A stretch of DNA of 64,000 nucleotides from a virus. Under the pieces are notes generated by a model. It did not search any database and had not been told where the DNA came from. It saw only the letters and a program-made list of their open reading frames with translations. Both the position numbers and the translations under genes were made by a program. Numbering within the stretch: the first letter of the stretch is position 1; each line of letters opens with the position of its first letter. Shown here piece by piece: positions 107 to 60,628 of this stretch. Where the stretch lies: positions 96,043 through 160,042 of the IMG/VR virus record IMGVR_UViG_3300009082_000017; one strand, 5' to 3'.

Positions 107-313
107 ATGGAAGTATCTTTTTATGGCATACATGGAAACTCTGGTATGATTGGATTTTCTTTAAATTGGGAAGATCCAAAATTTGGGTTTGGGCAAATTG
201 AGATCAATCAAGGTAATGCAGATGGGAAGATTTTTATTGATTCAGAATCAATGTCGCCAGAATTTGTAAAATCGGTATTGTGTGCGTTGGTTGATAATAG
301 CACCATGAAATAG
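107..313 (+). CDS. hypothetical phage protein
   Basis: AGGAG RBS; ends ...STMK* inside site 304. Confidence 0.75.
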   Translation: MEVSFYGIHGNSGMIGFSLNWEDPKFGFGQIEINQGNADGKIFIDSESMSPEFVKSVLCALVDNSTMK

Positions 314-339
314 CATTTTCATGTGGTTAAAAAGGAGTA

Positions 340-738
340 ATGATGATAGATTTTTGGGATAGCGATTATATAAAAAAATCAAGAAAAGATCATGTGTGTG
401 AATTTTGCCATGGTAAAATCTTGCAAAGTAGTTCGTGTTATCATGAACATGGCAAATATGACGGAGAATTTCAAGATTATTATTTATGTGAAAGATGCAG
501 AGAATTGATTGATAGCCGAGATGAAAGATGGGAATGGTATGATTCTGGAGAGCTTGGAGAATTTCATGAATTATTTATAGATGGCGGTTATATTAAATGC
601 CCCAAATGTGGATCTAATAATTATGATGAAATAGACTATTCTGGAGATGCGCTGTCTTGCACAATTTCTTGTGATAACTGTGAAAACGAATATAAATTAA
701 ATTTATCAGCAGAAAATCTTTTGGGACAAAACAAATGA
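340..738 (+). CDS. zinc-finger hypothetical protein
   Basis: Four CxxC pairs; RBS AAGGAG. Confidence 0.75.
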   Translation: MMIDFWDSDYIKKSRKDHVCEFCHGKILQSSSCYHEHGKYDGEFQDYYLCERCRELIDSRDERWEWYDSGELGEFHELFIDGGYIKCPKCGSNNYDEIDYSGDALSCTISCDNCENEYKLNLSAENLLGQNK

Positions 739-995
739 ACATAAATGAATCTTTTGGTAAAGAGTTTGATGCTTTATCTGTTGAAAGCAATCAATTAATG
801 ACTTACGTGACAGAGATTAGAAATAAAATTAATGATATTCCTCAGATAACAGACTTAAATGTTTGTTTAGAATTAGAAAAAGAATATGGTAATCTTGGAG
901 AATATACTAGGCTTTTAGGAGATACGTTTTTCAAATTATCACAAATGTATCATTATGTTAGACTAGTGAACAAAGTTGCTTTGGACGAACAATAA
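735..995 (+). CDS. hypothetical protein
   Basis: ATGA overlap with upstream gene. Confidence 0.65.
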   Translation: MNINESFGKEFDALSVESNQLMTYVTEIRNKINDIPQITDLNVCLELEKEYGNLGEYTRLLGDTFFKLSQMYHYVRLVNKVALDEQ

Positions 996-996
996 T

Positions 997-1320
997 ATGA
1001 AAATAAATAGACAACAAGTTTTAGATAAATATAACGGTCATTGCGCTTATTGCGGATGTGGAATAACACTAAAGACAATGCAAGTAGATCATAAAAAGTC
1101 AAAAGCATATGGTGGAACAGACGAATACCAAAATCTTATGCCATCATGTAGATTGTGTAATCATTATAAACGAGCCAATAACTTAGAAACGTTTCGAAGA
1201 TATATTATAGAAATGTATAAAAAATTATCAAAGGTTTATATTTTCAGAGTAGCCGAGAAATATGGAATGTTTGTATGGAAAGATTGGGATGGAAAGTTTT
1301 ATTTTGAGAGATTGCCATGA
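997..1320 (+). CDS. HNH endonuclease (zinc-binding)
   Basis: CAYCG...VDH...N...CRLCN motif; ATG at 997 preferred to ORF-track 976. Confidence 0.85.
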   Translation: MKINRQQVLDKYNGHCAYCGCGITLKTMQVDHKKSKAYGGTDEYQNLMPSCRLCNHYKRANNLETFRRYIIEMYKKLSKVYIFRVAEKYGMFVWKDWDGKFYFERLP

Positions 1321-1356
1321 AAGTTATTTTATAATGTTGATAAAAGGATAAAATCT

Positions 1357-3309: not shown

Positions 3310-3343
3310 TTTCCATGAAAGAGGGATTTCATGGGGAATTCGC

Positions 3344-4949: not shown

Positions 4950-4992
4950 TACACCATGAAACACAGATTTCATGAACAAATAAAGGAGTAAA

Positions 4993-5217
4993 ATGTTAAC
5001 AAATATTGTAGGAGACATACATAGACATATGGCATATTTCGGAACAGTTCCGAAATTAGTAATTGGCAAATTTACTTTAGAGACCATAAGAAAAGAATTT
5101 GGCAACTTAATTATTGATGCTGATTTAGATAATCAAAGAGGACAAACTATTGCCGGATGTGAATTTGAAGAAGCCGATTTTTGGTGGGGATATTATTTGA
5201 AAAAGTTTATATCATGA
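4993..5217 (+). CDS. hypothetical protein, single gene between sites 4955 and 5213
   Basis: AAGGAG RBS; stop TGA lies in the left arm of the site. Confidence 0.75.
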   Translation: MLTNIVGDIHRHMAYFGTVPKLVIGKFTLETIRKEFGNLIIDADLDNQRGQTIAGCEFEEADFWWGYYLKKFIS

Positions 5218-5251
5218 AACTTGTATTTCATTAGGGAAGAAAGGATAATTT

Positions 5252-5446
5252 ATGATAGATGCGATTATTGCGATTGTAGTAGGATTGTTGCTTTTATATT
5301 TTGGCATATCATCAATAATATTGTTTATAAAAAATGTTAATAAAAATGATGGAATATGGATTATAGCGAGTGCATTAATTTGTTCCATTGGATTATTTTT
5401 ATTTGGTGGTGGAATTTTACAAATAATAAAAATTATTTTACCATGA
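5252..5446 (+). CDS. two-helix membrane protein, single gene between sites 5213 and 5442
   Basis: Two hydrophobic segments; stop in site. Confidence 0.75.
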   Translation: MIDAIIAIVVGLLLLYFGISSIILFIKNVNKNDGIWIIASALICSIGLFLFGGGILQIIKIILP

Positions 5447-5507
5447 AACTAGAATTTCATGGTGTATTACAAATAAGATAATATTAGTATAGTGTAAGGA
5501 GATAAAT

Positions 5508-6542
5508 TTGGGAATAAACGTACTTTCATGTTTTGATGGAATTTCTGCCGGTCAATTGGCATTACAAAGAGCAGGAATTAAAGTAGACAATTATTTTGCA
5601 TCAGAAATTGACAAATATGCAATTCAAATTACACAGAAGAATTTTCCTAATACTATTCAACTAGGAAGTATTAATGATTATAAAGACTGGGATTTGCCTA
5701 AAATTGATTTGGTTATTGGCGGTAGTCCATGTCAAGGCTTTAGCAATGCAGGGAAAGGATTAAATTTTGAAGACCCAAGAAGCAAATTGTTTTTCACATT
5801 TTCTGATATTATCAAATATTATAACCCTAAATATTTTTTGTTAGAAAATGTAAAAATGAAAAAAGAATGGCAAGATGTTATTAGTGAATATATGGGTGTT
5901 GGCCCTATTGAAATTAATTCATCTTTAGTTTCTGCTCAAAATAGAAAACGCTTATACTGGACAAATATTAATTCTGTTGAAGTCCCCTTGGATAAAAATA
6001 TTTATATTGCAGATATTGCCGAAGAAGATGCAGAGCCTATCATATTACATAATTTATATGGTGGTTTTGGAGAATCAAAACCAAGAGTTTTTACAGAAAA
6101 ATCTCCAACAATAAGAACTGCAAGTGGTAGAGGTCATATTCCAAGCGTTGTTCGTAAAGATATTTATTGGAAAGACGTTCAGGAAACTGATGCCAAAGAT
6201 GTTTTTTATTATACTGATAAATCATTTAATTGGATAAATAAGTCAGAAGAACGAAAAGCAAAATTTAAGATTTATGATAAAAATACTGAAGAAAAAATGC
6301 AAATGGTTGAGGCATCACATTATAAATTGTATAGTAATCAACGTTGTTTTGGCATAAGAGATAAAGGTGGAATTAGGTATATTTCAAATATTGAATGTGA
6401 AAGATTACAAACGTTTCCAGATAATTATACGGAAGGCGTATCCAAAACTCAACGATACAAAGCAATTGGTAATTCCTGGACGGTAGATGTAATTGCTCAT
6501 ATTTTTTCATATTTGCCTGAAAACTGGAAAGTCACCACATAA
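5508..6542 (+). CDS. dcm: DNA (cytosine-5)-methyltransferase
   Basis: SCFDGI, GGSPCQ, LENV, QNRKR, ERLQTFP, IGNSW motifs. Confidence 0.95.
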   Translation: MGINVLSCFDGISAGQLALQRAGIKVDNYFASEIDKYAIQITQKNFPNTIQLGSINDYKDWDLPKIDLVIGGSPCQGFSNAGKGLNFEDPRSKLFFTFSDIIKYYNPKYFLLENVKMKKEWQDVISEYMGVGPIEINSSLVSAQNRKRLYWTNINSVEVPLDKNIYIADIAEEDAEPIILHNLYGGFGESKPRVFTEKSPTIRTASGRGHIPSVVRKDIYWKDVQETDAKDVFYYTDKSFNWINKSEERKAKFKIYDKNTEEKMQMVEASHYKLYSNQRCFGIRDKGGIRYISNIECERLQTFPDNYTEGVSKTQRYKAIGNSWTVDVIAHIFSYLPENWKVTT

Positions 6543-6579
6543 AAGTGTCATTTCATTGGAAATTGATATTGATTTACTC

Positions 6580-6631: not shown

Positions 6632-7147
6632 ATGGCCTATAGTAATCCTAATAATATTATTACAAAAGGAAAAGAATTGTCTCATTCATCAGAGAATAAA
6701 ATTGAAGCTATTAATGCTCTTGAAAAAGCATTAAGCACATTAAATGAAACAATAAGAAGTGCTTGTGATCTTGGTATTTTCCCAAAAGTGGAAGTTAGGC
6801 AACAGATGTCCTTTTATGAATCTAATCCCGATTCTATTATGGGAATTATTCATTATCTTTCAGCAGATTCCGTATTTTTAGAATATTTAGAAATGTATGA
6901 TAATGCTCAAGGTTTAGTTGGTATGGCACTTCCTCATGGCGAAACCGCAAAGCATAGACTTTCAATATATGAAAGCTCATATAATGAAAGAAAAGAATTT
7001 TTAGAAAAATCTGAATTAGAAGATAAAAAAGATCAATTATTAAAGTTGGAAGATTGGTGGACAAATACAAAAGATACTTTTGAATCCAGAATGGAAAAAA
7101 CAGAAAAAGATATTATTAAAGAGTCTTGTGTAGAAGTTACCCCATGA
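6632..7147 (+). CDS. hypothetical protein, single gene between sites 6538 and 7143
   Basis: AAGGAG RBS; ends VTP* in site. Confidence 0.8.
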   Translation: MAYSNPNNIITKGKELSHSSENKIEAINALEKALSTLNETIRSACDLGIFPKVEVRQQMSFYESNPDSIMGIIHYLSADSVFLEYLEMYDNAQGLVGMALPHGETAKHRLSIYESSYNERKEFLEKSELEDKKDQLLKLEDWWTNTKDTFESRMEKTEKDIIKESCVEVTP

Positions 7148-7193
7148 AAGATTTGTTTCATGGTATAAAAATTAGATAAGAAGGAGATTAAAC

Positions 7194-7367: not shown

Positions 7368-7394
7368 TTATTTGTCACATGAAATCAATATTTT

Positions 7395-8258
7395 ATGGTG
7401 CTAAACACCATAGAAAGGATAAATCTATTGAAAGAATTACAACCGGCAATCAAATGGTCAGGAAGTAAACGTCCTATTGCAAAAGAAATTGTAGAATCAT
7501 TTCCAGATAATATTGAAACATATTATGAACCTTTTTGTGGCGGATGTTCTGTACTGTATTATTTATTGAATAGCAATAAACTTGGTGCAAAACGATATGT
7601 TTGTTCAGATATCAATAATGATTTAATAGATTTGTGGAATACAATTAAATCTAATCCAAGTCAAGTTATTAATAATTATTCGAGAATGTGGAATGAGTTA
7701 CAAGTTTTAAGTATTGCAGATCGCAGACAATATTTCTACGATGTTCGAAGTAGATTCAATAAAGAAAAATCACCTTATGACTTTATGTTTATTATGAGAA
7801 CTACAACCAATGGTATGCCTAGATATAATAAATTAGGAGAATTTAATAATTCTTTTCATATTACAAGAGATGGTATTAATCCAAAAGAATTTACAACTAC
7901 GATTGATAAATGGTCTAGTTTATTAAATAATTATGAAGTAGAATTTGTTTGTCAAGATTATATTAATATTGTTTCAGATAGCGAAGATGTGATTTATTTA
8001 GACCCGCCTTATGCTGGGACAAAAGGAATGTATTATGGAGTAATTGATTATAATAAATTATGGGAATGGGTGAAGATTCAAAAAGGATTTGTCGCACTAA
8101 GTTTTGATGGAAGAACCACAAGCACAGAATATTCTGATTTAGTTCCAAAGGATATTTTTAGTAATCATAAATTGATTTGTTCTGGTAATTCTTCATTCAG
8201 AAGGACTATCGGAAAATCAAGATCAGAGTATGTTTATGAAAGTTTATATACCCAATGA
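7395..8258 (+). CDS. Dam-like (D12 class) DNA adenine methyltransferase
   Basis: KWSGSK, YYEPFCGGCSV, YLDPPY; true start probably TTG near 7428 after AAAGGA. Confidence 0.92.
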   Translation: MVLNTIERINLLKELQPAIKWSGSKRPIAKEIVESFPDNIETYYEPFCGGCSVLYYLLNSNKLGAKRYVCSDINNDLIDLWNTIKSNPSQVINNYSRMWNELQVLSIADRRQYFYDVRSRFNKEKSPYDFMFIMRTTTNGMPRYNKLGEFNNSFHITRDGINPKEFTTTIDKWSSLLNNYEVEFVCQDYINIVSDSEDVIYLDPPYAGTKGMYYGVIDYNKLWEWVKIQKGFVALSFDGRTTSTEYSDLVPKDIFSNHKLICSGNSSFRRTIGKSRSEYVYESLYTQ

Positions 8259-8270
8259 AAGAACTATTTC

Positions 8271-8474
8271 ATGGAGAATAAACATTTGAAAACTAAAAAT
8301 TTGGTATATTATTTATTTGGGGCAAATGATCTAGTTTCTTTATGGAAGTTGTTTCTTGCCACTATCTCAATAAAATATTTTTTGCCTAATAGACGATCCA
8401 AAAAAATGTTAAGAGAAAAGATAAAATATCTTAAAATATTAGAAAACATAAATAAGGAGAATAAAAATGAGTAA
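8271..8474 (+). CDS. hypothetical protein
   Basis: ORF track; first ATG is in the right arm of site 8254, true start may be the TTG just downstream. Confidence 0.5.
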   Translation: MENKHLKTKNLVYYLFGANDLVSLWKLFLATISIKYFLPNRRSKKMLREKIKYLKILENINKENKNE

Positions 8475-8655: not shown

Positions 8656-8694
8656 CCCAATGAAAGGACTCTTTCATGGGAGAAAGGACAAATT

Positions 8695-9978: not shown

Positions 9979-10094
9979 ATATAATTCAACGGAAAATTGT
10001 GAATGGCATATGATTATATATCCAAGTGTAGGATAATTACTTCATGAAATATAACCTTCATGGAAACTAGTTCAAAATTGGTATCAATTTACCC

Positions 10095-10652: not shown

Positions 10653-10694
10653 TTCCCCATAAAACGAATATTTCATGTGATAAGAGAGACGTAA

Positions 10695-21745: not shown

Positions 21746-22577
21746 AACAATTATATTCTCTCGCAATCGTCCTCTTCAATTAACCTTATGCCTTAAAACA
21801 TTATTAAATCATTGTACGGACATTTTACAACAATCAAACATTACAGTTTTATACAGAAATGATGAGGAATATCGGCAGTCTTTTGACAATTTAATGTTGG
21901 AATTTCCCCAAATATCGTTCAAAAAGGAGGAAAATTTCAAAAAAGACCTGCTTTCTTTGCTACCACATGAAAGCAACATTTCATGGGGTAAAAATGAAGG
22001 TTTTGTCACTTTTGTTGTCGATGATCAGATTTTCACCGAAGATTTTTCAATGAAAGAAGTTATTTCAACACTTGTTGAAAATCAGGATTGTATAGGGTTT
22101 AGTTTACGTCTTGGCAAAAATTGTGTACGATGTTTCCCTTATGATTGTGAGCAAGCAATTCCAAAGACAGAAAAAGTTTCAAAGAATGTTGTAAAATATA
22201 ATTGGCAAGAAGCAGAGTATGACTTCAATTATTGTTTAGAGTTATCTGCAAGCGTTTACAGGGTAAACGACCTTATAGAGATGTTTGAGATTTGCGATTA
22301 TGACTCACCCAACCACCTCGAATCAATTATGAGTTCGTGTTTTTATAAGGACAAACCAAACCTTTTAATGTTTGAAAAATCGGCATCCTTCAGTTATCCG
22401 ATGAATAAGGTTCAAACATCACACCCAAATAGGAGTGGAGATTTCAATCCTGACACTCTTAGATTAATTTATGAAAAGGGTGGAAGATTTGAAAATAAGC
22501 AATTTGATGGTTATATTAGTAATGGAGCACATGAGATTCCAGAAAGTATAAATTTGGTGGACACATATGGCAAATGA
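21732..22577 (+). CDS. GT-A fold glycosyltransferase-like protein
   Basis: IIFSRNRPLQL, FVVDD, FSLRLG, PN.LE. Confidence 0.7.
   Translation: MKKCKTIIFSRNRPLQLTLCLKTLLNHCTDILQQSNITVLYRNDEEYRQSFDNLMLEFPQISFKKEENFKKDLLSLLPHESNISWGKNEGFVTFVVDDQIFTEDFSMKEVISTLVENQDCIGFSLRLGKNCVRCFPYDCEQAIPKTEKVSKNVVKYNWQEAEYDFNYCLELSASVYRVNDLIEMFEICDYDSPNHLESIMSSCFYKDKPNLLMFEKSASFSYPMNKVQTSHPNRSGDFNPDTLRLIYEKGGRFENKQFDGYISNGAHEIPESINLVDTYGK
21966..21985. repeat. perfect 7-6-7 site inside a CDS
   Basis: CATGAAA-GCAACA-TTTCATG, read as PHESNISWG. Confidence 0.85.
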
Positions 22578-30564: not shown

Positions 30565-33500
30565 ATGGAAATCGAATTATCTAAACTAGAATGGGAAAGA
30601 TTTTTAACCTACCATGAAGAAAAATATGGTGAGTATGGATGGTATCCAAATTTAACCGGAGTAAACGTAGTAGATAGAAATACTGGTAAGTTGGTTGGAT
30701 TTCGTCAAAATATTCCAGAGCGATGTTTTATTTTGGAAGAATGGTTAGTGGGGACACCATGGGAAAAATTTGTAAGTGTAACCACGGTTACTAATTAAAA
30801 GGATAAAAAATGAATATTTTTAATATGTTGATAATTCTGTTCCTTGTGTTAATGTTTTTTATTAGTTTGACTATTGATTCAAAATATTATAATAAATCGA
30901 CAGGGGAGTTGCCATAATGACACATGTTACGGTTCATCAACTTACAGCAAGAAATAGTGAGAAAGTTTTCTTAAATGTCGATAATGATGTTTATGGATGT
31001 GTTAGTGTTTGGGGATCTTGTTATCAAAGACGAACATTTTTAATTCAAAAAGATTGTGATTTTTATCTTATGCAATTTGAAAATGATGAGTATTATAAAG
31101 AATGGCAAGAAAGCGAATCTGGTAAATTTTGGAAAGATGCAAGAATAACAGAAATTTTACCAATTATTAAAGATGATTATTACACCATGAAATAGAGATT
31201 TCATTCGGTTGAAGAAAGATAAATTATGAGTAAACCTATTATTACAGAAATTAGTGACGAAGATGGTCTTTATGAAATTAGAGAAGATTATTTGGGTAAA
31301 GAAATTATTCCTTGTAAAGACGTAGAAAAATGGGGGAATAATAGTTTTTTTGGAAATAAATTGAATGGATTTATGTCTGGCCATTTTATAGTGGATGGTA
31401 GAGAAACTTGTTTCTTTGCTGTAAAATATGGAAAGGGAAAATAATATGTCACAACACTACGACTTAATTACAGAAATAAAAAATCTACCCTTTAACATCA
31501 AAAATATTTTTGATTGGTCAAAAGTACTCTGGAATAATTTCGATTGGAGTGGTGATTTTCTTCTTGAAATTATCGAGTATAAATTAAAGAGAATGAAGCA
31601 GTATATGGAAGTTGATACTTTTGTTTGCAAAGAATCGGCTAAAGAAGATATTGACCAGATCAATTCTTGTTTAGAAGCATGTAGAAACTTGATATCAAAT
31701 GATTTTGAAAGTGATTTGGCAATAAAACATTATGATAAATACCCAATTAAATATGAACGTTACGTTGACGAAAAAGGACTTAGGCATACAGTTTGGAAGA
31801 ATATGGGCGAACAAGAAAAAATAGAGTTTGATGAAATGACAAAATTAATTGATGAATATCAAGAAAAATATAAACACCAATTATTCGACACCTTGCGTGA
31901 AAAATATAATTGGTGGGGAGATTAGTATGACACATTGGAATCACCGTGTAGTAAAGAAAGAATATCCTGAAAGTGCAGAGGTGTACACAGAATACTCTAT
32001 TCGAGAAGTCTTCTATAATGATGATGGAACAATCTACGCCTACACCGAAAACCCTATGGAAACTCGTGGAGAATCATTAGATTCGTTGCGAGAATATCTT
32101 ATGAGATGTTTGAAGGCTTTGGATCAGCCTGTTTTGGTAGATGGTGAGGTTGAGTTTAATGATGGTGGTGAAGAATGGAATGAGGAGTTTGGGCCATTCA
32201 ACAGCATGGAAGAATTAATGAAAGCTCTTGAAGCAGAAGATGAAGAAAATGAGGATGAAGATGCAATCGTTTGATACAGGGAAGGATGATGCGAGATACC
32301 GCGAATTACAAAATGCTTGGTCTGATGATAAGATTACTTGGAAGCAATTTCAAAAAGCCGAAGAGTATAAGTTTAGTTTAAATCAATTATTGTTTTGGGA
32401 TAGTTGTAGTTTTTGGGATAAGGTTATGGTTGTGTTTGGTAGAAAAGAATATCCAGATCAAGATATTTATGATACTAGAAGTGTATATTTTCAGGAAAGA
32501 GAAAAAATTATTAGTAAAGTAATAAAATATGGTTATGATAATAATATTCAATTTTCTTTCAAGCAAATGAAAAGTTTTGATCCATTACATGATAGAAATT
32601 ATAAAGAAAATTGGAAAGAGTTTGTGAAACAAAATGAGGTCAAAGATGTCTCATTGGAATCATAGAATTGTTTTAAAAGTTTATCCTTCTGGGGAAGCAG
32701 AATATTCTATTAGGGAAGTACATTATAAAAGTGAGGATGATTCTAATCCAGTATCATATAGCGCAAATCCACAACCTCCTTGTTCTGACACACCAAATGG
32801 ATTGAAATGGTATTTGGAAAAATCATTGGAAGCTTTTGAAAAGCCTACTTTGTTTGAGGGGCAAATTACAGAGTTTGAGAAGAATAAGTTTCAATGAAAC
32901 AGTAGTTTTATGGGGAAGTAAAATATAAAAATAGGAGATGAAAATGAGTAAAGAAAATGAACTAGAAAAAAGAATAGAAATTCTTGAAAAAGAAATTAGT
33001 GATATAAAAGAAAACATGAAGAAAAGAAGTGCATACATTATCACTAGGCTTTCTTGCGGAGTATGGAGACAATATTGGAATGAAAGGGCACAATGTTATT
33101 CTCGTTCTTTCTCTGATGCCACATTCTTTTCGGAAGAAGAAAAGAAAGTATACACTCGTAAATTAATGAGTGGTGAGTGGAGAAAGATTTCTTCGTTTTT
33201 GGATTTTCAATAAAATAATAATTTCATTAGGTTAAATTGGGTGGCAACGGAAAAGGAAAAGGTGAATACATATGGAAAATGTAAAGAATTTTGATAAAAT
33301 GAACGACGCCTTAAATAATATATTTTCAAATGGTAGTCAACCATACCACATTGACTATGAAAGAAGTTATGGCAATTTATTTGGGAATGATATAAAAAGT
33401 GCTGTAAAATTTTATTTGAGATTAGGATCTGAAGTAATGTATCCTAGTGATAAATATGCAGGATTTGTTTTATATCCTCAAGCCCTTAATCCGTTTTTAC

Positions 33501-36050
33501 GAATTATGGAGACTATGGGAGAATCAAGAAATATTATTATTCTTCCTGGTTTTGATCAAGAGACTGGAGACAAGGAATTCCCAAATCGTCCAGCATACTT
33601 AATTATAAAAGTTCCAAATCAAGTAACTTATCCCACAGATATCGCAATGGGAAAAATATAATTAATTAAAGTTAGGTTGCCACCTAATTTAGTCCAATGA
33701 AATGCCCGATTCATGGAAATATATAAAAAATAAAATATTAAACAAGGAGAATATAATGGAAGAGACTGTTACAATTAGTAAGGCTAAATGGAATAAATTA
33801 GTTAATGCAGACATGTTGTTGGGTATTCTACAAGATTATGGTGTAGATAATTGGAGTGGATATTCAGAAGCCATGGAAGAGTATGAAGACGCTTTGAGAG
33901 ATTGCGCTGAAACGGAAGAATAATATGAAAACAAAATGCTATTGTGTTTATTGCCCCAAACATCCATTCTTTGAACGTCAAAAAGAATTTGGACAAATTT
34001 CTGGATGGCACGCAAATATGTATAGCCCTATCCATTTCGACATGACTGCCGGTGCAGATGTTGAATGTCTTGATCCAAAAAGTGATGCTTTCTATGATTT
34101 GGAAGTTGAACCAGAAGATCATGAATTCAAGACATGTGCTTATGGTGACGGTAGTGCCGAAACAGGAACTAGTGGATGTGGTTGGGAAATTGATGCCTAT
34201 TGTGGTAATGAAGAGTATAAGGAGTTAGAGTAAAATGAGTTTATATAGAAAGTTGCCAGTAGAGATTGAAGCATTCAAATGGACAGGAGACCAAGACCAA
34301 ACTGAAGATCCGTTATGGATTGTTAACGCAATCAAAAGAGGAGATGTTTATTTTGTCAATCATAATTCTGGATTGGTTTTTATGAAAATAAAAACTCTTG
34401 AAGGAGAAATGACTGCCGGTCAAGGTGATTATATTATTAAGGGAATTAAAGGCGAATTGTATCCTTGTAAGCCTGATATTTTTGAAAATAGTTATGAGTT
34501 ACTACAAAAATAATTCCATGAAAGCGTCATTTCATTAGGTCTATAAAAATAAAAGGAGAATATAAAAATGGCAAAAAGTATAAAAACACAAATGGAATTA
34601 CTTTACGAAATGTGCGTAGAAATTTATGCTTGTTTGGAGTTAGATAGAGAATGGGAAAGTGCCAATCCCAGTGAAGCGTCTAATGTAGCTGACAGGGTCT
34701 TATGGATATTGGATAAAGAAGACAATGAAAATTTTCGTAAATTAGTACAAATCAAAATGGATGAAATTGATCCAGACTTTGATTATCACGACAAACAACT
34801 ATAGTCAATGAAACTGCCATTTCATTAGAATAAATTAAAATAAAATTAAAAATAAAAAGGAGAAAATATAATGAGTGCTGGAGCGTATAAAAGTGGAAAT
34901 TGGGAAGGAAATTTCAAATTTTCACCAGGAACATTTGAAGAAAAGAAAGACCCAGATGATAATTTAAGATATATGTATAGACAAATCCCGTCTAACTTTA
35001 CTGGAGAAAAAATAATTTATAATGTGAATGGGAATAGAGTCAAGGTTAGTGTAGAAAATGGAAGAGTATATAATTGGAGTTGGGGATAACCCATGAAACA
35101 GATATTTTATGGGGCGTTAAAAGGTAATATATTGCTTGTTATGGTATAAAACAAAGGTTAAAGTGTAAGTTATTACTTATTATAAAAAGGAATAAAATGG
35201 AAAACGAATATAAAGATTATGTAATTGTAATGTGGAATAATGATTCTAAATATAAAGGGCAAACTCAAAATATTGAAACGCAAGGTGAAGCCGAATCTTT
35301 ATTTTCAGAATATTTTAATCAATTTGAAAATATTGAATTAGTAGAGATAAATACCACAAGGACTGTTTTAAAACACAAGTATATGACAATTACCTCATAA
35401 AACGAAAATTTCATGTGAAATAAAATTTATAGAAAGGAGAATAAGAGATGGAAGAGAAAATTGAAGCAAAGAAAAGAAATACTTCTTGGATAGTCACGGC
35501 GACTTCCCCATTGATCAGACCTGGACTAAGTATTAGTATTACGGTTTCTGAAAAATATGTTGTAGAAGAAACTTTAAAACTTATGGATAAGATTAGAGAA
35601 ATTAATACTACCCCATGAAACAAGAGTTTCATTAGAAACTTAAATCTATAGAAAGGATATTATATGTCAAATAAAATTTTACATTTACAAATTCCGATGA
35701 TGGATACAAAAGCACCAGTACGAGATGCTTTTGGGGTATCAGCAGAAGCAGCAAGTAAATTTGTTTCTATGGTAAAAGAAAAGCTTGGAGATGATTGGGT
35801 TGTAGTTATGTCACCCTTTAACCCAACAATTTCTGAAGATGGTCAAACATTTTATAACTTTAAAATGGAACAACTTACAAAAGAAGAATTAGTAAATTTA
35901 ATCAAATAAATTCAAAAAGGAGAACCCTATGACCGACGAACAAATCAAACAAATGAATGAACACAACGAAGCTATGGCAAAATTACGTTCAGAAAAGGCA
36001 AAGCAACCAAAGACACATCGAGAGAAACAGAAGGAACGGAAGCGTCATTA
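30565..36050 (+). CDS. tract of about 20 small hypothetical proteins, many singly bounded by palindromic sites
   Basis: ORFs at 30565, 30917, 31226, ~31446, 31927, ~32261, 32646, 32938, 33272, 33756, 33925, 34235 (conserved phage RK.PVEIEA...TLEG...GDYIIKG..GE.YPCKPDIF type), 34568, 34871, 35197, 35448, 35664. Confidence 0.7.
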
Positions 36051-36689: not shown

Positions 36690-36896
36690 ATTTCTTTCGT
36701 CTCATTGCCCTATTTGGTATCATTATTATAGAATCTAATTAAGGAGGTGAACCATCTACACAACCCAATGAAAGTGTTATTTCATGGTAATTTTAAAAGG
36801 AGTTATATAATATAAAATAAATAAAAAAATAAAAATAAAAAATCTAAAATAAAAATCAAAAAATAAAATTATATAAAAGAAAAGGAAAAAATAAAA

Positions 36897-50578: not shown

Positions 50579-50579
50579 A

Positions 50580-51314: not shown

Positions 51315-51328
51315 TCAAAGGAGACCCT

Positions 51329-51694: not shown

Positions 51695-54600
51695 ATGAAA
51701 TTGTCAGAATTAATAAAAGAAAATATAAAAGAAAATTTCAATAAAATAGTAAATAGCGATAATATTGAAGAATATGTAAAACATTTAAGTCATGAGTTTA
51801 TTTCCAATTATACTTTGGATGAACTCTCAGAAATGTTCACAGCTTCAATTTATAATAAAAAAATTAATCAGTTTTTAATGAAATGAAGTTTTCATGGGGT
51901 TGAGAAAGGATAATTATGTTTACACAAAAAATGTATAAAGCCTTACGTCGAGATAATCAAGGAAAAGAAAACATTATTACAGATCTATTAAATGAAATTG
52001 ATAGACTAAATAAAGAATTGCACCCAATATGTAATTGTGAAAGATGCACTGGAATAAAAGATTATTATTTAGAAAGCGAAGATGATAATCCCAGTTTTTC
52101 AATGCATTAAATATATTACCATGAAATAAATGTTTCATGGACTAGAAAGGTAAAAATGGAAAGACATCATGTGTATTGTACTTGCTGCATTTATGGAAAT
52201 AAATTAATAAATAGTCTTTATAAAAAAGATAGACCAGACGACCCTATTGAAGCGTCTCCCCTGATTTGTAGAAATTGTTATCCTTGGAATTTAGAAGATA
52301 GCAGATCCTCAGATTTGAGAAAAAATTATAAAGAATCTTTGTCTGGATGGTGGTGGCTTACAAAACAAGAAATAAAAGATTGGTTTATGTATACACTTTA
52401 CAAAATTTGTAAAATACAAAAAGGAAAAGAATGAACGCAATAATTACGGTAAAATTTAAATTATTAAATTTATGCAACCCTGAAGATTTAGAAAGTATGG
52501 GGATGACTTTTGAAGAAATGGTTAGAAACCTAATTTCAGAAGAGGGTATTTTTGGTTTAGTAGAAGATGGTGGAGAAATTATTAGCGTTGAATCAATTGA
52601 GTCTATTTAAGAAAGGTGATATATGATAACTGAAGAAAACTACACGGTTTGCCGAAGAAAAGAAAATTCCGTAGAAATAAAAGATTTCGAAAACTTTGAA
52701 GACGCTTATAATCATTTTAAAAAAGATAAAGATAAATATTTATCAGGGTATATTGAACATTCATACAAAGTTACAGAAACATTTTTTGATTTTAATAAAA
52801 CAAAATATCCTCCACGAGATCAAGTGGAAGATATGGTAAATAATACATAGGAGAAAATGATCAATGAGAAACAAGAAAATAAGCCTGAAATATAAAGGGA
52901 TGCAACATTTAGTAAAAGATTTGGATTATTTAGTAGAATTAGGATTTGCAGAATTTGTCCCAGATCCAAAAACCGGCGAGTATGGGTATAGATTTAAAGA
53001 GGATGGGGTTAAATTGTTGGCTAACATGAACCAGGAAGAAAAAATTTCCCAATGAAATTGAAGTTTCATGGGGATTTGGGTATTGACAAGATAAAGAAAG
53101 TATGATATAAATAATCTAGGAGATTATAAAAATGGAAGATAAATCAACTGTCAAACTTAGAACTGAGAAATTGAATATTATTGATGCTAATGAAAAATAT
53201 AGAAAAGAAAATTATACAGACGTTACATTAAAAGATATTTCTATTATTATGCATAGAGCTTGTGGACAAGGAGTGATTCATAATTTAGCATATGAATTAT
53301 CTAATATTTTGCAAATAGATTCCGAATCTATGTTGTATGCTTTAGATGTTGTTCGAGACAAATATATAAATATTAGCAATCAAGATGCCTTAAATATGTT
53401 TTTTGGTAGTAAAGAACATTTCCCCGCTTGGTGTTTTCATTCGGATATTGAAAGGAAAAAACTAGTTTTACAAAGACGATTAGAACGCTTGAATGAAATG
53501 GAGATTTTATGAAAAATCCAATTATATATTATGGTGACGACGGTTGTTTATGGCTTTGTTTTCGAAATGAAAACAAGCAAATTAATTTATGTTTAGAAAA
53601 TGAAGGCATAGAATCTAGTTGGAATTATGTTGGCAAAAATCCAACAGAAGCAGAATGTTATACTTTAGATTCTCATCTTGCCGAAAGACTACGAGAGTTT
53701 TATGAGGATTATAGAGAAACGGAAGAAGGATAAAAATGCAAAAACTTTTTATGATTCGAGACATTGTTACTGGTGAATATTTCGATGATGATTACAATGA
53801 ATGGGGTGATTACGAAAACGCTAGTCTTTATGAAAAGATTGGCGAACAATACTACTCTGGAGCAACAGGCGAAATGGAATTGCCAGAAGATTCAGAATGG
53901 GTAGAATATGTTCTTCCCCATGAAAGCGCAATTTTATTGGATCAAGATGAAAAAATTTAGAGGCGTATTTGCCGAAGACAGAAATTGGTTTACTGACTTA
54001 ATTTATAATTTATTTGGTGGTCTTGTAAATAGATTATTATTTAAATTACCTTATTCTGAAACAGGACGAAAAATTATGATTTGGTTTGTTCAACATGATC
54101 CAGAAGAATATTCGGGTAGCTAAAGGAGATAAAATGAATATAAAAAGAAAACTAAGTTATGCCCATAATATAAAAATATTTGATAAAAATAACCCAAATA
54201 TCAAAATATTAAATACAGATGAATCCATAATTACATTGTTTAAAAACAACGATGTTCCCATTGAATATTGCGAAACACCTGAAAAGAATGAAGTCATCGG
54301 TTTTATTTCAAAAGTTGGTGAATTTATTGGAAGTGAATTGTTTGGAGACGTTACTTTTTGGGGAGAAAACTATTCTACATACGAACTTAAAAATTATTGT
54401 GTAGAAGTTGATTTTGAAGAAGCTGGAGAAGGTGAGTGTTGGGTTAGCAGAATTGTTTGTGTAGAATTCCAACCACATAAAACTATTATTTCATGAGGTA
54501 AAACAATGGAAACATTTAAAGACCAACAAGGCAGTATTTTTTATGCTTCTGACAGAGATGACTTAATACAAATAATTCAGAAATTATTAATTTATATATC

Positions 54601-55023
54601 TGATGTTTGTGAAAGCTATGGTAATGAATATGAGGCACTAGAAAAAGAAATCATAAAATTAGGAATACCATTGCCTAATAAAACGACCATTTCATTAGAG
54701 GAGTAAAAATGAGAGAATATACAGCAGTCAAAGTAGATAAATTAGTAGAGGCAAAAGTTACTTGCAATAAATGTGGCATGATTTATGATAATGAAACATT
54801 TGATCCAGAAATGCCACAAGGATATGAAGAATGGCAATGGGACACCATTCATGCTTTTAAAGTAGATTTTGGGTATGGCTCTTCCCATGATATGGAAAGA
54901 TGGAAATTTGATTTGTGTGAAAATTGCATTGAAGAATTAGTGGATTCATTTAAAATTAAAGCACAAAAACTTGGTACCGATCCATTTGGTGAAGAATTAT
55001 CTATTCAAGAAAATAATCAATAA
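51695..55023 (+). CDS. tract of about 14 small hypothetical proteins
   Basis: ORFs at 51695, 51916, 52156, 52431, 52623, 52864, 53132, 53509, 53736, ~53947, ~54134, 54506, 54709, most with RBS. Confidence 0.7.
53083..53111 (+). promoter_or_regulatory. sigma70-type promoter
   Basis: TTGACA-17-TATAAA, extended TG. Confidence 0.8.
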
Positions 55024-55048
55024 AACATATATTCCATGGAGGTAAATA

Positions 55049-55822
55049 TTGAGATTAAACGATGATATAGTTATTAAACAATGTGATTGTATGGATATAA
55101 TGCAAAGAATTCCAGACAATTATGTTGATATGATTTTATGCGATTTACCTTTTGAAAAAACTGGTGCAAAATGGGATATTATTATACCTTTAGATAAATT
55201 ATGGGTTCAATATAATAGAATTATAAAAAAAGATGGTGCAATAGTTTTGTTCGGAGTAGAACCATTCACATCAATGCTAATAATGAGCAATTTAAATAAT
55301 TATAGATATAAATGGACATGGGGAAAAGAACAAGGTGGTAATTTTCAATTAGCAAAACTTCAGCCATTAAATGTACTAGAGGATATTTGTGTGTTCTCTC
55401 TTTCAAAAACTGCTAATGGCGCAAAAGAAAATATGAGATATTTCCCAATTATGACGAAAAGAGATAAGCCAACAAAATCAGGTGGCAATCCTTCTGTAAG
55501 TGATATTTTGCATAAAAATAATATGGTGGCATTACATAAGATATATGAAGAAAGTTATCCAAAAAATATTTTGCGTTTTAATAAAGATCATAGTTCGAAA
55601 AGATTGCATCCGACTCAAAAACCGGTTGAATTATTAGAATATCTGATAAAAACATATACAAAAGAAAAAGAAGTTATTTTAGATAATACTATGGGTGTGG
55701 CATCAACAGGAGTTGCTTGTATAAACACAAATCGCAAGTTTATTGGGTATGAATTAGATGAAAAATATTTTGAAATTGGTAAAAACCGACTTTTAGAATG
55801 TTTAGTAGAAAAATCGAAATAG
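55049..55822 (+). CDS. N4/N6 DNA methyltransferase (beta class)
   Basis: DMILCDLPF, HPTQKP, LDNTMGVAST (glycine motif slightly deviant), FIGYE. Confidence 0.9.
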   Translation: MRLNDDIVIKQCDCMDIMQRIPDNYVDMILCDLPFEKTGAKWDIIIPLDKLWVQYNRIIKKDGAIVLFGVEPFTSMLIMSNLNNYRYKWTWGKEQGGNFQLAKLQPLNVLEDICVFSLSKTANGAKENMRYFPIMTKRDKPTKSGGNPSVSDILHKNNMVALHKIYEESYPKNILRFNKDHSSKRLHPTQKPVELLEYLIKTYTKEKEVILDNTMGVASTGVACINTNRKFIGYELDEKYFEIGKNRLLECLVEKSK

Positions 55823-55904
55823 AAACATATATCAAAAATAATAACTATTTTTAAGATTTACCCCATGAAATGCAAATTTCATTGATTTAATCGAAAGGAG
55901 GATA

Positions 55905-58294
55905 ATGACCACACCAAAAGAAGCATTAGAATTCTCCAAAGAAAAAGCAACAACCGAATTATTACAATTTATAGTTTCTGCTTCCAAAGGATATGAATAC
56001 GTTAATAAACAAAAACTAAGAGAAATTATAGATTGGATAACTTTGGCATCTTGTTTAGAAGGCCAAGTTATGATAAGCGAAAACCTACCTAAAAAAGAAT
56101 AGAGGCATACTATGGCACGAGGGATTCACAGCAATACCCACATTACCAAATTGTTTTACATCCTTAGAAGAAAAGGAATATCTGATGGATTAAAACATTA
56201 TTGTGTACTTGAATTACGTCACTGGCAGGAAATAACCACAGATGAAGCTTATAAATATTTAGGATTAGATTATAATAACCTAGAAGAACAATTTAATAAT
56301 ATTACAAAATCAAAGGAGAAATAATAAAAATGACAGACGAAGGAAAGAAATTACAGCAAGAACAAATCCAAAGAAGTTATGATTTATTGAAAGAGGAAGG
56401 CGTTGTAACGAGTAAAGATTCTGCGTTATATTGGATTTTTGAAATTGCACAAAATTATGATACTGCTGAAACAATTGGAGAACATCGCGCGGTAATTGAT
56501 GAGCTTGCAGCATATGCATTACTTGGGAAAGAATGTGTTGAATAAAACTAATTTTACCAGAAACCTTGACAAATTTACATTTCTGTGGTAAACTTATTTT
56601 ATAATTATAGGAGCGCACATTGGGCAATATATGTTTTTATTGCAATAAAGAAATTACTGAAAAAGACACATGTTGGTTTGAACCAATAGATGGGTCTTAC
56701 CCCACAAAATATGGTAATATCCCTTTTCATAAAGAAAAATGTTATCGAACTATAAAAGATATTTTCCAATATTTAGAAGAAAATAAAGAAAGAGTTTTTG
56801 ATTTTATTGCAAATGGATCTAAACAAATTGTAGAAAATAAGGCAAAACAAATAAAAGAAACTATTGAAGAACAACCTAAAACAAAAGAAAATAAAATCAA
56901 AAAAACTAAAAAAATTAAAACTAAAAAAACTAAAAGGAAATAGTAAAATGGGAAAATACGATGTAAAAATAACCAACCAATTAAAAGAAGGTGATAAAGT
57001 AAAAATTGATATTGAAAAATATCGTTGGCAAAGAGAACAAGGATCTCTCACTGATACTTTTTGGCAATTTTTGGAAGACAATAAAGAAACTATTTTTACA
57101 CTTTTCGCAAGAAATAAATATGGAATTATGTGGGGAATAGAAGAGGATACAAGATGGTCTTTATATGGTGATTTTTTGATTAAGATTGACTAATGGAGAT
57201 TAATATGGCATACTGGGTGTATTGGACAATATTTTCTGTATTAGCTTTTTGTGTGGCTGGGATTATTATTAAGTTTTTGTGGGATATTTTACAAGAACTT
57301 AAATTCTTAAATAAAAATCCCAAAGAAGGCAATTGTCCTCATGGGTATAGTGATTGGGATGCGTGTCAAGTTTGTAGTTCTGAAAAGAAATACTTTTAAT
57401 TACAATAAGAAATTAATTTCATGGAATGAGTGAGGATAAGATGTGACATTTTCTAATTCTGGAGCCATATGTTCTGCAAGTTATATAAGTTGGGGCGATA
57501 CTTGGCTTAATTACGATCATACTATTGTTTCTAGAAAAGAATAAAAAGAAAAACATTTCTGTGAATATTGCGGATCATATAGTGAGTCAGTTTATAGAGA
57601 AGGAACTTGTGGCGCATGTGGCGCTCCATTTGGGAAATCACAACATAAGACAAAGACTTATCCTGATCGTTCTTGTGGATGGGTATATGCACCATAAAAC
57701 GATAATTTCATGGGAATAAAATAGAAAGGATAAATAAAAATGCATGTAAATCTTATTTATAAAGAAAACGATTTTCAAACATTAGCAGAATTATTCTTGA
57801 AACATAGAACTGTTAATGAATTCATTGAAGAAGCTATACATAGTCCAATTAGATCATTTGATGGGAGTAATAGAATTGATATGAATACTGCTATTACTGT
57901 GTGGCAGTCGTTTAAGGCGTTGGAGAATGTTATGGATAAGGTTGAAGCGTAATGAGAGATTATCCTTTTTATGTTTATTTGCACACAAATGGCGAATTAA
58001 TTACCAAGAACCCTTGGGTTGTAGATTCTATGGGCGCTAGTGAATATTTTGATAGCAGTTTTGTTGTAAAATATTGGCTTGTTAAAAACGACGAAGAACT
58101 TGAAGGCGTAAAAAAACAAGCTGTTAAATTAATAAAATGAATATTTCACTAGGAGAAAAATGATTAAATTATTAAAACAATTATTTTGTGCTTTAATTTA
58201 TGCTCACGATTTTGAAAAATATTCTGGTAGTGAATATGCAAAATGTGAAAGATGCGGATATATCACATCAGTATATTATAGAGAAAATGTTTAA
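55905..58294 (+). CDS. tract of small hypothetical proteins
   Basis: ORFs at 55905, 56112, 56330, 56620, ~56948, 57193, 57740, 57952, 58160. Confidence 0.65.
56566..56594 (+). promoter_or_regulatory. sigma70-type promoter
   Basis: TTGACA-17-TAAACT, extended TG. Confidence 0.8.
57443..57697 (+). pseudogene. zinc-ribbon gene with premature stop, between sites 57404 and 57693
   Basis: GTG 57443; in-frame TAA 57542-57544; continues CEYCG...CGACGAP...YAP* with stop in the site arm. Confidence 0.6.
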
Positions 58295-58322
58295 TAAAAT
58301 AGATAATTCATGGAGATAGAAT

Positions 58323-59000
58323 TTGTATAAAATATACAATCAAGATAATACAAAAGTCTGTAGTTTACCAAAAGTAGATTTAGTATATGCAGATATGATC
58401 TATGAAAATGAAGACCTTTCATGGATTTATGATTTTTTCGATTTGCTTAAACCTAATGGAATTTTTATCGTTCAAACAGATTTTCATACAAATTATTTAG
58501 TGAGAGATGCCCTTGAGAATATACGTCAAGCAACATTTGTAAACCATTTGGTTCAAAAGAATGAATGGGGAAACCACCCAAAAAATAAATTTCATCAATG
58601 CTATGACGACATTATAGTTTTCTGCAATGGTAAAGATTGGAAATTTTATCCAGAAAGAATTCAAGTAGACAAGGTTACAAAAAATAAAGGATTAAATCCT
58701 TCAGGTAGACAAACCAAACAAGCAACAGCATGGATAGACGATATTTGTCTAACTACAACATCAAAAGAAAGAATCAAAAAAGAAGATGGGCATTTAATTA
58801 GATGGCAGAAGCCCTTAAGATTATTTGATAGGATTGTTGCGCCTTTTACTGACGAAAAAGATTTAATATTTGATCCGTTTATGGGTAGTGGTAGTTTGGG
58901 CGAATGGTCAATCAAAAATAATAGAAATTATATTGGTATAGAATACGATGAGGTTGTTTTCGGATTAGCGAAACAAAGATTAGATAAGCTTACCCAATGA
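58323..59000 (+). CDS. N4/N6 DNA methyltransferase (beta class)
   Basis: DLVYADMIY (motif IV variant), WQKP, DPFMGSGS, YIGIE. Confidence 0.88.
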   Translation: MYKIYNQDNTKVCSLPKVDLVYADMIYENEDLSWIYDFFDLLKPNGIFIVQTDFHTNYLVRDALENIRQATFVNHLVQKNEWGNHPKNKFHQCYDDIIVFCNGKDWKFYPERIQVDKVTKNKGLNPSGRQTKQATAWIDDICLTTTSKERIKKEDGHLIRWQKPLRLFDRIVAPFTDEKDLIFDPFMGSGSLGEWSIKNNRNYIGIEYDEVVFGLAKQRLDKLTQ

Positions 59001-59082
59001 AAATCACTTTCATGCGAACATCAAATTCTCGTAAACTATACGATTAACACGAATTACAAAATTACAAAGAAGGGAGGTTCCC

Positions 59083-59682
59083 ATGGAGATCTTAAATAGA
59101 AATGAAATAAGTGAATTAGTAGACATGTATAGTATTAAAGATACCGTTGATACTTTTATATCAAAAACTATCAATAAATTTCCACTTACTGAAGACGAAT
59201 TAAAATTAACATTTCAAATTATTGACCGTTGTTTTATTAGATGGTATATTGACTAAAAGACTAAAAAATCAAAATGACAAAATATTTTCATGGACTAACA
59301 ATAGAAGAGAAATGTGATATCTATAACAATAGAATCCCATGGTATAAAACTGCTAAAAAATATCCTCAACCTGAGTGGTGTTTACATCAAAATGCAATCT
59401 GTGGTTTATTTGGATGTGATGAATTATGGGAAGGATTAATCGAAGGAAAGAAAGATTGTTATAGTTGTAAGTGGTGTGAAGGAGGAGAATATTATGAGTA
59501 AGAGTGAATTTAAGAAATTAGTTGAGATGGAAGTTTTAGGGTTTATTGATTTTGTTAATGATAGAGGTTATTTTTTACAAAATAATGAAGATGAGAATAG
59601 TAGAATTACTTATGTAATTCTACAAAAATTGTTACAAGAATATTTAAGTAAAGGCGAAGGAGAATCCGAAATTGAATGTTAA
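59083..59682 (+). CDS. three small hypothetical proteins (59083, 59274, ~59494)
   Basis: Packed + strand ORFs. Confidence 0.6.
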
Positions 59683-60226
59683 ATTATTATCTGAACATGG
59701 TTATGAAGAAGCCGCACTTGGCTTCTCTTTAAGTTATAACACTAGCATTGAAAGAGCAAAAGAAATTTTACCCAAATATGCTTGGGGAAAATCTGGAGAA
59801 ACAAAATTTCTAGAAAGTATTTATATTTGGTTGGATGTTACCGCCCCTAGATATTGGTGGCAAGAAGCTGATACTTATAGGTTGACTACAAAACAAAGCG
59901 CTTCAACAATGCATACATTAATGAAAGCAAAACTATCAGAAGAAAATTTTGAAGAAAGTATTTATACAGAATTTGTAGGATTCCAAAATTATTTAGATTT
60001 CTTAAATGGATTAATTGAACATAAAGAAATTCCAATAGATAATATTAAATGCTTATTGCCAGAAGGATTTCTCCAACGTAGAATTTGGGTAATAAACTAT
60101 AGAGTGTTACAAAATGTTTATAACCAAAGGAAAAATCATCGACTCCCACAATGGCATTACTTCTTTGATGAAATTTTCAAAGACTTACAACATCCTGAAT
60201 TTATCAAACCACCGGAGACAAAATGA
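59672..60226 (+). CDS. ThyX-fold (Thy1-like) protein
   Basis: APRYWWQE.DTYR...S.STMH, LP.GFLQ.R...NYR.L.N...QR..HRLPQW; lies in nucleotide-metabolism block. Confidence 0.65.
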   Translation: MNVKLLSEHGYEEAALGFSLSYNTSIERAKEILPKYAWGKSGETKFLESIYIWLDVTAPRYWWQEADTYRLTTKQSASTMHTLMKAKLSEENFEESIYTEFVGFQNYLDFLNGLIEHKEIPIDNIKCLLPEGFLQRRIWVINYRVLQNVYNQRKNHRLPQWHYFFDEIFKDLQHPEFIKPPETK

Positions 60227-60628
60227 CACCAGATGAAGAAACTGATTTGGCAGAAAAATTAGTTCGACTAGTTTCACAATGTATGGAAGAAAAACACATC
60301 GCAAAGGAGAACTTAACTATTGATAATTTTTTAAATTGGGTCGTAGATAAGGCAAATAAATCTATTAAAAGAAAGAAGAAAAAAGATGAAATCCAAAACA
60401 TTAATATTTCTGTATAACCCCGAAACTAAAGAATACGTTGAATCACTATCCAATGAATGTGACATTTCATGGTGCGATAGTTGGGTTGAGGCGATGGATT
60501 TTAGTGATATGTTTATTGTTAAGAGGTGGGTGAGAAGGTTAGGATTAGAGAATAAGTTTAGGGATTTGGGGTTAAAGTTGAAGTGGAAGAGAGTGTTAGT
60601 ATTTGATGGAGTTAGGGGTGTGGTATGA
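60223..60628 (+). CDS. two small hypothetical proteins (60223, 60386)
   Basis: Overlapping start/stop with neighbours. Confidence 0.55.

Follow-up and report, generated by a model that had tools for sequence, protein, structure and literature searches.

Palindromic sites with private, order-conserved centres divide the gene slots of a large phage genome and may serve as addressed recombination joints

The 64,000-nucleotide stretch of viral DNA analysed here (the window) covers bases 96043-160042 of the contig IMGVR_UViG_3300009082_000017 (G000; 160,042 bp; 32% G+C), whose first 51 kb have their genes on the minus strand and whose remainder has them on the plus strand. The contig of a relative bridges the junction of its two ends, and we therefore regard the G000 record as a complete, permuted genome. 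Its layout resembles that of the Bacillus phage SPbeta, with a YomM-like tyrosine recombinase inside the tail module, a YorL-like polymerase and a Sak4-like AAA_24 protein. The DnaE-type polymerase is homologous to YorL (24% identity, E 3e-60). With 24-26% identity in the YomM-like and YorL-like proteins, G000 appears to be a member of the SPbeta-type phages that is only distantly related to SPbeta itself. The window holds a glycosyltransferase block, a gene for a second tyrosine recombinase and a replication block, and among its genes recurs a palindrome, (C/A)AT(G/A)AAA-N6-TTT(C/T)AT(G/T), that is the subject of this study. What is new here is that the six-base centre (spacer) of each palindrome is private within G000, and that these centres are kept in order across relatives while the contents between them differ.

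The exact pattern occurs 32 times in the window, compared with 0.12 expected (100 dinucleotide-preserving shuffles, the largest count being 1), and 77 times across the whole genome. If one mismatch at most is tolerated among the 12 core bases, the counts rise to 37 for the window and 94 for the genome. The window also has a single copy with a 5-bp spacer and four or five plausible degenerate copies, so that the figure of about 44 put forward in the original prediction was a fair count by eye. One further candidate, at window position 59274, is the start codon of an open reading frame (ORF) and is probably a chance match. The spacing is strict: 43 perfect cores have N6, and each of N2-N5 and N7-N10 yields 0-1, in line with the earlier statement that all copies except one share a 6-bp spacer. 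The sequence logo is dyad-symmetric to 4 bp on either side, with Y-C-C-(C/A) outside each arm, which bears out the C-rich left and G-rich right flanks noted previously. Each half-site is thus about 10 bp long (Y-C-C-M-ATGAAA), or 11 bp if the biased first spacer base is counted, and ATAAAA is a minor form of the arm. The spacer has no consensus except that its first base is not A and its last is not T.

The two halves of the site vary independently of one another. At the pair of positions -1/+18 the combinations are CG 34, AG 28, CT 23 and AT 6, so that Watson-Crick pairs number 40 where 49 would be expected, and the three positions beyond this pair likewise show no covariation. Selection for a stem would favour compensating changes, whereas a dimeric protein bound to two half-sites would not. 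Together with the symmetric logo and fixed spacing, this supports the proposal, made originally from uncompensated arm mismatches, that the sites are double-stranded DNA sites for a dimeric protein and not hairpins. In the plus-strand region, where gene bodies make up 81% of the sequence, 74 of 81 sites lie outside them, and in 18 cases the TGA or TAA of the left arm is itself the stop codon of the upstream gene, as expected from the description of copies at or just after stop codons. The next start codon usually follows 15-35 bp downstream, and a TTGACA promoter was found within 60 bp after the site at only 9 of the 94 sites. No site lies within the replication block (window 36787-51876), which had been described as free of copies and is so (none in 36768-51878), and the glycosyltransferase block has one, as had also been reported.

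A DNA search of the phage collection returned no near relative, and a search of bacterial genomes through the 316-amino-acid (aa) recombinase encoded in the window returned none. Relatives recovered through that recombinase bring the comparison to six genomes for the 20 kb around its gene, where alignable parts are 70-80% identical. One further contig, L039, is a second assembly of the G000 phage, identical at 100% across 17 kb without variants. The most extensive comparison is with G001, a 143-kb relative that has 74 exact sites and whose alignable genes are 65-93% identical to those of G000.

Within G000 no two spacers are the same, in agreement with the earlier observation (0 identical pairs versus 2.7 expected from column shuffles), and none is the reverse complement of another (0 versus 2.75). 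Even near-repeats are scarce, as 27 pairs differ by a single base where 39.9 are expected (P = 0.02). Between genomes the situation is the reverse. G000 and G001 share 55 colinear site pairs, of which 46 have identical spacers and four differ by one base. Identity by position stands at 0.93-0.98 for the spacer bases, at 0.62-0.85 for the degenerate positions of the arms and, beyond 5 bp on either side, at the background level of 0.3-0.5. Given that the alignable genes are 65-93% identical, a neutral 6-mer would usually have changed. Around the recombinase gene, an ordered series of centres is common to all six genomes, individual sites being present or absent. Variant centres also occur (for example TAGAGA and TAGAGG), none of them confined to a single genome. 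The same core is found at 12 sites within 6.9 kb of a more distant contig that encodes a recombinase of 46% identity.

The DNA between conserved centres is a different matter. About a dozen slots bounded by identical-spacer sites in G000 and G001 are of unequal length and show no similarity by blastn or tblastx, and across the six genomes 55 of 78 same-centre pairs have no detectable homology in either 250-bp flank. The replication module behaves as a single slot, 15.1 kb long in G000 and 7.7 kb in G001 with 2-6% similarity, although the site at its left-hand end differs from its G001 partner in two centre bases. These comparisons support the view that the sites mark places where relatives differ in gene content. 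The original prediction of a shuffling system is supported in part; its reordering component is not borne out, given the conserved order of spacers across six genomes.

At the 70-80% identity of this group breakpoints cannot be read at the level of single bases, and we therefore turned to SPbeta and phi3T, which are near-identical in the DNA they have in common, so that breakpoints can be read to the base. SPbeta (NC_001884) contains 34 perfect TAAAA-N6-TTTTA dyads and 0-3 at other spacings. The TAAAA core is contained in the minor arm form ATAAAA of G000, and the site type of G000 is, by its sequence, best described as a variant of this dyad. The architecture, 6-bp spacing and intergenic position are the same in both, as are the private centres kept in order between relatives; the main arm of G000 differs in being ATGAAA with C-rich outer flanks. 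For 23 of the 34 SPbeta dyads, phi3T has the same centre at the matching place, and at 11 of those 23 one or both flanks are unrelated, the 100% identity ending at the edge of the dyad. At positions 86886, 92753, 113664 and 131162 the two phages are 100% identical up to and through the dyad and random past its far edge. At 69424, 88400, 116415, 117535 and 118470 the match is limited to the dyad and a few neighbouring bases. Of 45 ends of high-identity segments, 7 lie no more than 25 bp from a perfect dyad (0.7 expected, about tenfold enrichment), and 10 lie that close to a dyad if up to one mismatch is allowed (1.7 expected). The dyads are strong exchange hot spots, yet only about one breakpoint in five is at a dyad. 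The expectation that breakpoints in relatives would fall at the sites is thus supported in cultured phages of the same site family, with the sites as hot spots and not as the sole breakpoints. The GenBank record of SPbeta does not annotate these dyads as a class. In the literature searched we found no published description of them and no phage counterparts of pdif modules or boundary sequences, and a survey of SPbeta relatives makes no mention of palindromes.

Two tyrosine recombinases are encoded by G000, and no serine recombinase was found in the genome. The 316-aa protein, singled out in the original prediction by its start at 29605, is by sequence an intact Xer-like tyrosine recombinase. 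Its best NCBIfam model is of XerA type (125.5 bits, under the cut-off of 220) and it matches PDB entries 4a8e and 5hxy. R161, H254, R257, H280 and Y289 are invariant. The protein is conserved in every relative found. Its identification with YopP or MrpR was considered and is not supported; it is not similar to MrpR. The 344-aa YomM-like protein retains R, HxxR, W and Y, and as a candidate enzyme for the sites it is at least as good as the 316-aa protein; we make no choice between them. The lysine of the R-K-H-R-H/W-Y set could not be placed confidently in these candidates. A site at G000 17009 lies just upstream of the YomM-like gene.

We give about an even chance to the interpretation that the palindromes are addressed recombination joints on double-stranded DNA, used by one of these two intact phage enzymes. 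Symmetric arms, fixed spacing, centres that are private yet shared between relatives, and breakpoints at the site edge together point to a recombinase site whose centre is matched between partners. The strongest argument for a role in recombination is the conservation of unique spacers between relatives. Under this interpretation, two inverted half-sites of about 10 bp around a 6-bp centre would bind a dimer of a phage protein, most likely the 316-aa Xer-like or the 344-aa YomM-like recombinase. Strand exchange would require identical centres, as with lox, FRT and dif. With the centre of each joint private, its sole partner would be the corresponding joint of a related phage, co-infecting or resident. 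A pair of these crossovers would swap the segment between two joints, so that gene order would be preserved and deletions or inversions within the genome avoided. The stop codon would come from the left arm and the ribosome-binding site from the short leader that follows, allowing any incoming gene to be expressed. The identity of the binding protein, cleavage within the centre and the need for matching centres are what we infer here; if centres must match between partners, exchange is confined to the same joint in related genomes. Extended to the SPbeta-type phages as a group, the proposal would be one of natural heterospecific-site cassette exchange, in which one recombinase acts on about 90 sites with common arms and private, population-wide conserved centres and co-infecting relatives swap genes slot by slot with order kept. 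We hold this broader form tentatively, at somewhat less than even chance. The weaker statement, that related phages exchange genes preferentially at these sites, is one we consider quite probable.

A number of observations argue against addressed joints. Neither recombinase is tied to the sites, the link between enzyme and site being putative, and the 316-aa enzyme has no clear counterpart in SPbeta. Homologous genes are found in different slots in different genomes, which strict centre matching would forbid. If crossovers took place in the centre, outer-arm differences should accompany loss of homology in the adjacent flank, and no such signal was found (2.6 versus 2.6 of 7 positions; paired test P = 0.28). 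At some sites the leader on the right is co-conserved across 20-45 bp, leaving more substrate for ordinary homologous recombination there. Only 16-22% of the SPbeta/phi3T breakpoints are at dyads, and the ends of G000/G001 alignments are equally enriched at gene junctions that have no site, with no preference for junctions with one. Finally, conservation of the centres needs selection on exchangeability rather than on the immediate fitness of an individual phage.

Alternatively, the sites may be hot spots of short homology, in which 18-26 bp of identity at a common joint, made up of the arms, the private centre and at times the leader, is used by a phage annealing system (a Sak4-like protein, a single-strand-binding protein (SSB) and an exonuclease), the arms serving some other protein, for example in nicking or replication pausing. 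Arguing for this case, the gene of the AAA_24 (Sak4-like) protein (window 38132-39205) adjoins that of an SSB-like protein (window 36897-37949), and the SPbeta record labels YorG as a Sak4-like annealing protein. Crossover intervals can be placed only within the identical core, and the co-conserved leaders, the cassettes in different slots and the many breakpoints away from sites are all as it would have them. Counter to this, short homology leaves unexplained why the spacing is strictly 6 bp, why the dyad symmetry takes in 10 bp of each arm and why centres avoid repeating. Most sites, moreover, have some 18 bp of identity and are unrelated directly to the left, which is short for recombination of the annealing type. 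We consider this explanation unlikely. A different possibility, and one we find rather more doubtful, is that a dimeric protein of regulatory or architectural function docks at the palindromes (as a silencer, roadblock or nucleoid organiser, for instance an MrpR-like repressor), the coincidence with swap points being secondary and due to the position of the sites at gene boundaries. A symmetric double-stranded site between a stop codon and the next ribosome-binding site would suit such a protein, as would the equal enrichment of breakpoints at junctions without sites. There is also a precedent in MrpR, a protein with a tyrosine-recombinase fold that binds a repeated SPbeta element without catalysis (PMC10516654). 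However, the MrpR-bound element is a different, non-dyad motif over the -10 region, both G000 recombinases retain their catalytic residues, and a TTGACA promoter follows few of the sites (9/94). Nor does docking give a reason for private centres to be 93-98% conserved while degenerate arm positions and flanks are near saturation, or for centres not to repeat within a genome.

That the palindromes act as RNA hairpins, whether terminators, processing sites or stabilisers of messenger RNA, is in our judgement very improbable. The sites are intergenic and on the transcribed strand, their core arms are always complementary, and as RNA the 26-nt site has a mean folding energy of -4.5 kcal/mol. This fold is weak, however, and few sites (10/94) are followed by a T-run. 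A-G and C-U oppositions are as common at the closing position as C-G, without covariation, and the symmetry of motif, flanks and spacer edges leaves the site without an orientation relative to transcription. There is no Rfam match at the sites, and a hairpin cannot explain loops that are private and conserved. The absence of compensating changes, the symmetric logo and the lack of an Rfam match led us to reject intrinsic terminators and structured RNA in general. The promoter-early stem-loop (PeSL) of T4-type phages was rejected as the identity of the site on the scarcity of TTGACA within 60 bp (9/94) and of T-runs (10/94) and the weakness of the stem. The repeated element of SPbeta known as SPBRE was rejected because the 15-bp motif common to ten MrpR-target promoters is different and lies over the -10 region. 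Restriction sites and the boxes of host regulators (cre, Rex and CRP type) misfit in spacing or half-site and leave the conserved centres unexplained. The description of the system as integron-like did not hold up. The two integron-integrase models reach 40.8 and 19.2 bits where their cut-offs are 265 and 435, so that there is no IntI-type integrase, and a folded site of attC type, an attI and a single array are likewise absent.

The individual sites of the window and the two candidate enzymes are listed in Table 1. The site with spacer GCAACA lies in frame within a 281-aa ORF of the glycosyltransferase block and may mark a fused gene pair. The same block contains a gene of GIY-YIG/NUMOD3 homing-endonuclease type (window 24470-25366; Pfam, from the identical contig L039). 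Dcm-type (window 5508-6542) and Dam-type (7395-8258) DNA methyltransferase genes each form a one-gene unit between two sites, and the slot of the Dam-type gene is filled in G001 by 198 bp of unrelated sequence. Two TnpB-like genes (OrfB_IS605 with Cas12f1-like TNB) occur without tnpA, at window 1357-2556 and 26036-27211. One of them is followed within about 165 bp by a gene whose end falls on a site, and the TnpB genes of relatives occupy other slots. The replication block (window 36787-51876) holds SSB-like, AAA_24, primase-like and DnaE genes in one site-free slot. G004 has the replication module of G000 (78-80% DNA identity), whereas different modules occupy this place in G001, with a DnaE of 27% identity, and in L034, which encodes Prim-Pol, DnaB and a polymerase with an intein. 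A tRNA-Met gene (CAT; window 36190-36264) lies shortly ahead of the final site before the replication block, and a group I intron (Rfam RF00028, 81.5 bits) occupies window 63171-63455, between ORFs 62435-63256 and 63463-63999. Other repeated motifs accompany sites outside the window. At G000 49400-63600 several sites are flanked by GAAC-N4-GTTC boxes, for example ATAGAACAtcTGTTC directly to the left of the site at G000 55485. We take GAAC-N4-GTTC to be a form of the Gram-positive LexA (Cheo) box, and LexA-type boxes beside sites hint at SOS control of the first early genes. At G000 64520-64830 the motif TAACAG or AACAGAAAGGA is repeated just before ribosome-binding sites, after sites.

Table 1. 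Palindromic sites of the window and candidate recombinase genes (window coordinates unless marked)
Feature	Position	Strand	Core	Spacer	Remarks
Site	304..323		exact	TAGCAT	region missing from G001 contig
Site	3314..3333		exact	GAGGGA	TTGACA promoter next
Site	4955..4974		exact	CACAGA	
Site	5213..5232		exact	CTTGTA	left-arm TGA terminates ORF 4993-5217
Site	5442..5461		exact	CTAGAA	left-arm TGA terminates ORF 5252-5446
Site	6538..6557		exact	GTGTCA	left-arm TAA terminates Dcm-like gene 5508-6542
Site	7143..7162		exact	GATTTG	same in syntenic G001 place; next slot unrelated (217 vs 463 bp)
Site	7378..7397		exact	TCAATA	same in G001; next slot 858 vs 198 bp, no similarity
Site	8254..8273		exact	GAACTA	same in G001; next slot unrelated
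Site	8659..8678		exact	GGACTC	same in G001
Site	10043..10062		one arm mismatch	TATAAC	G001 partner differs in 1 spacer base
Site	10658..10677		exact	CGAATA	G001 partner differs in 1 spacer base
Site	21966..21985		exact	GCAACA	single site of glycosyltransferase block; in ORF 21732-22577; same in 5 genomes, both flanks homologous
Site	27592..27611		exact	CGACTG	same in 5 genomes; 10/10 pairs without homology in either flank
Site	28593..28612		exact	CCGGTA	same in L031, L032, L034 and degenerate G001 copy
Site	28940..28959		one arm mismatch	GAACCA	same in G001
316-aa Xer-like tyrosine recombinase, candidate enzyme	29605..30555	+			PF00589, E 3.5e-21
Site	31186..31205		exact	TAGAGA	same in G001, L032, L027
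Site	32893..32912		exact	CAGTAG	
Site	33209..33228		exact	TAATAA	same in L031
Site	33696..33715		one arm mismatch	TGCCCG	same in G001, G004, L032; 5/6 pairs without homology in either flank
Site	34517..34536		exact	GCGTCA	same in G001; next slot unrelated
Site	34807..34826		exact	CTGCCA	same in G001; next slot unrelated
Site	35092..35111		exact	CAGATA	same in G001, L034
Site	35396..35415		exact	CGAAAA	same in G001, L034
Site	35614..35633		exact	CAAGAG	same in G001, L034
Site, last before replication block	36767..36786		exact	GTGTTA	G001 partner differs in 2 spacer bases
Site, first after replication block	51877..51896		exact	TGAAGT	same in G001; right flank homologous, left not
Site	52120..52139		exact	TAAATG	same in G001
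Site	53051..53070		exact	TTGAAG	same in G001; TTGACA promoter next
Site	53492..53511		exact	TGGAGA	same in G001; next slot unrelated
Site	53919..53938		exact	GCGCAA	same in G001, G004
Site	54476..54495		exact	CTATTA	same in G001; next slot unrelated
Site	54677..54696		exact	CGACCA	same in G001
Site	55864..55883		exact	TGCAAA	same in G001
Site	57693..57712		exact	CGATAA	G001 partner differs in 1 spacer base
Single copy with 5-bp spacer	58996..59014		perfect arms		C/G-rich flanks
Site	60452..60471		one arm mismatch	GTGACA	same in G001; both flanks homologous
344-aa YomM-like tyrosine recombinase	G000 15909-16943 (L041:1429-2463), outside window	minus			tail-gene region; homologous to SPbeta YomM, E 8e-21

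Whether phage mosaicism originates in conserved linkers that guide exchange or in random illegitimate joins sorted by selection is an old open question. The phages described here form a large-phage family with a defined, countable linker, whose private and conserved centre points to a specific mechanism. If addressed joints are real, they would be the 'linker' mechanism long proposed for the modular evolution of phages. SPbeta and phi3T bear the same kind of site and are genetically tractable, which makes the idea directly testable. If one enzyme does distinguish about 90 centres, these would also be ready-made orthogonal recombination sites for genome engineering.

It is instructive to compare the sites with known systems. 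Cores of the dif/lox/FRT type have inverted arms of 11-13 bp around a free centre of 6-8 bp, and the G000 sites fit this plan with arms of about 10-11 bp and a 6-bp centre; two candidates for the cognate recombinase are encoded, with the catalytic lysine not confidently placed. In heterospecific lox or FRT exchange by Cre or Flp, common arms are combined with different centres and only like centres recombine, so that a segment flanked by two different sites is exchanged and the rest keeps its arrangement. The likeness to addressed joints is close, but lox/FRT cassette exchange is a laboratory design with 2-3 variants, whereas that of G000 would be natural, with about 90 variants, and is unproven. 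Integrons similarly combine a tyrosine recombinase with gene cassettes bounded by recombination sites. Their attC sites, however, are long, variable and structure-defined and act as folded single strands, and their arrays are read from one promoter, whereas G000 sites are short, of fixed length and sequence-defined, and form no single such array.

SPBRE is, like the G000 site, a repeated intergenic element of an SPbeta-type phage, and is bound by a protein with a tyrosine-recombinase fold, the master repressor MrpR (YopR), at about ten promoter sites identified by ChAP-seq (PMC10516654). The motif common to the ten reported MrpR target promoters (L042-L044, NC_001884) is close to CAAATAATATGTATATAAT; it overlies the -10 region and does not have the form of a dyad around a free centre. 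In addition, the catalytic residues that both G000 enzymes retain have been lost from MrpR.

The nearest described systems are the PeSLs of T4-type phages and the dif modules of Acinetobacter plasmids. PeSLs consist of a promoter and a terminator stem-loop and recombine by homology between copies (PMC2839356, PMC4122927). Like the G000 sites, they recur between the genes of a large phage in its variable regions, and insertions, deletions and replacements between relatives occur at them. Unlike them, the G000 sites are seldom near promoters (9/94), are not terminators, show no selection for pairing and have private centres. The pdif sites of Acinetobacter plasmids belong to the XerC/XerD system (PMC6449649, PMC13141974), and there too the accessory modules in which related replicons differ are delimited by many recombinase-type core sites with inverted arms and a 6-bp centre. 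A pdif site has two unlike arms for two host enzymes and resembles the dif of the host, whereas the G000 arms have the same composition on both sides, which suggests a single protein. Furthermore, the candidate enzymes of G000 are encoded by the phage, which itself carries about 90 sites, and their private centres are conserved in order from one relative to the next.

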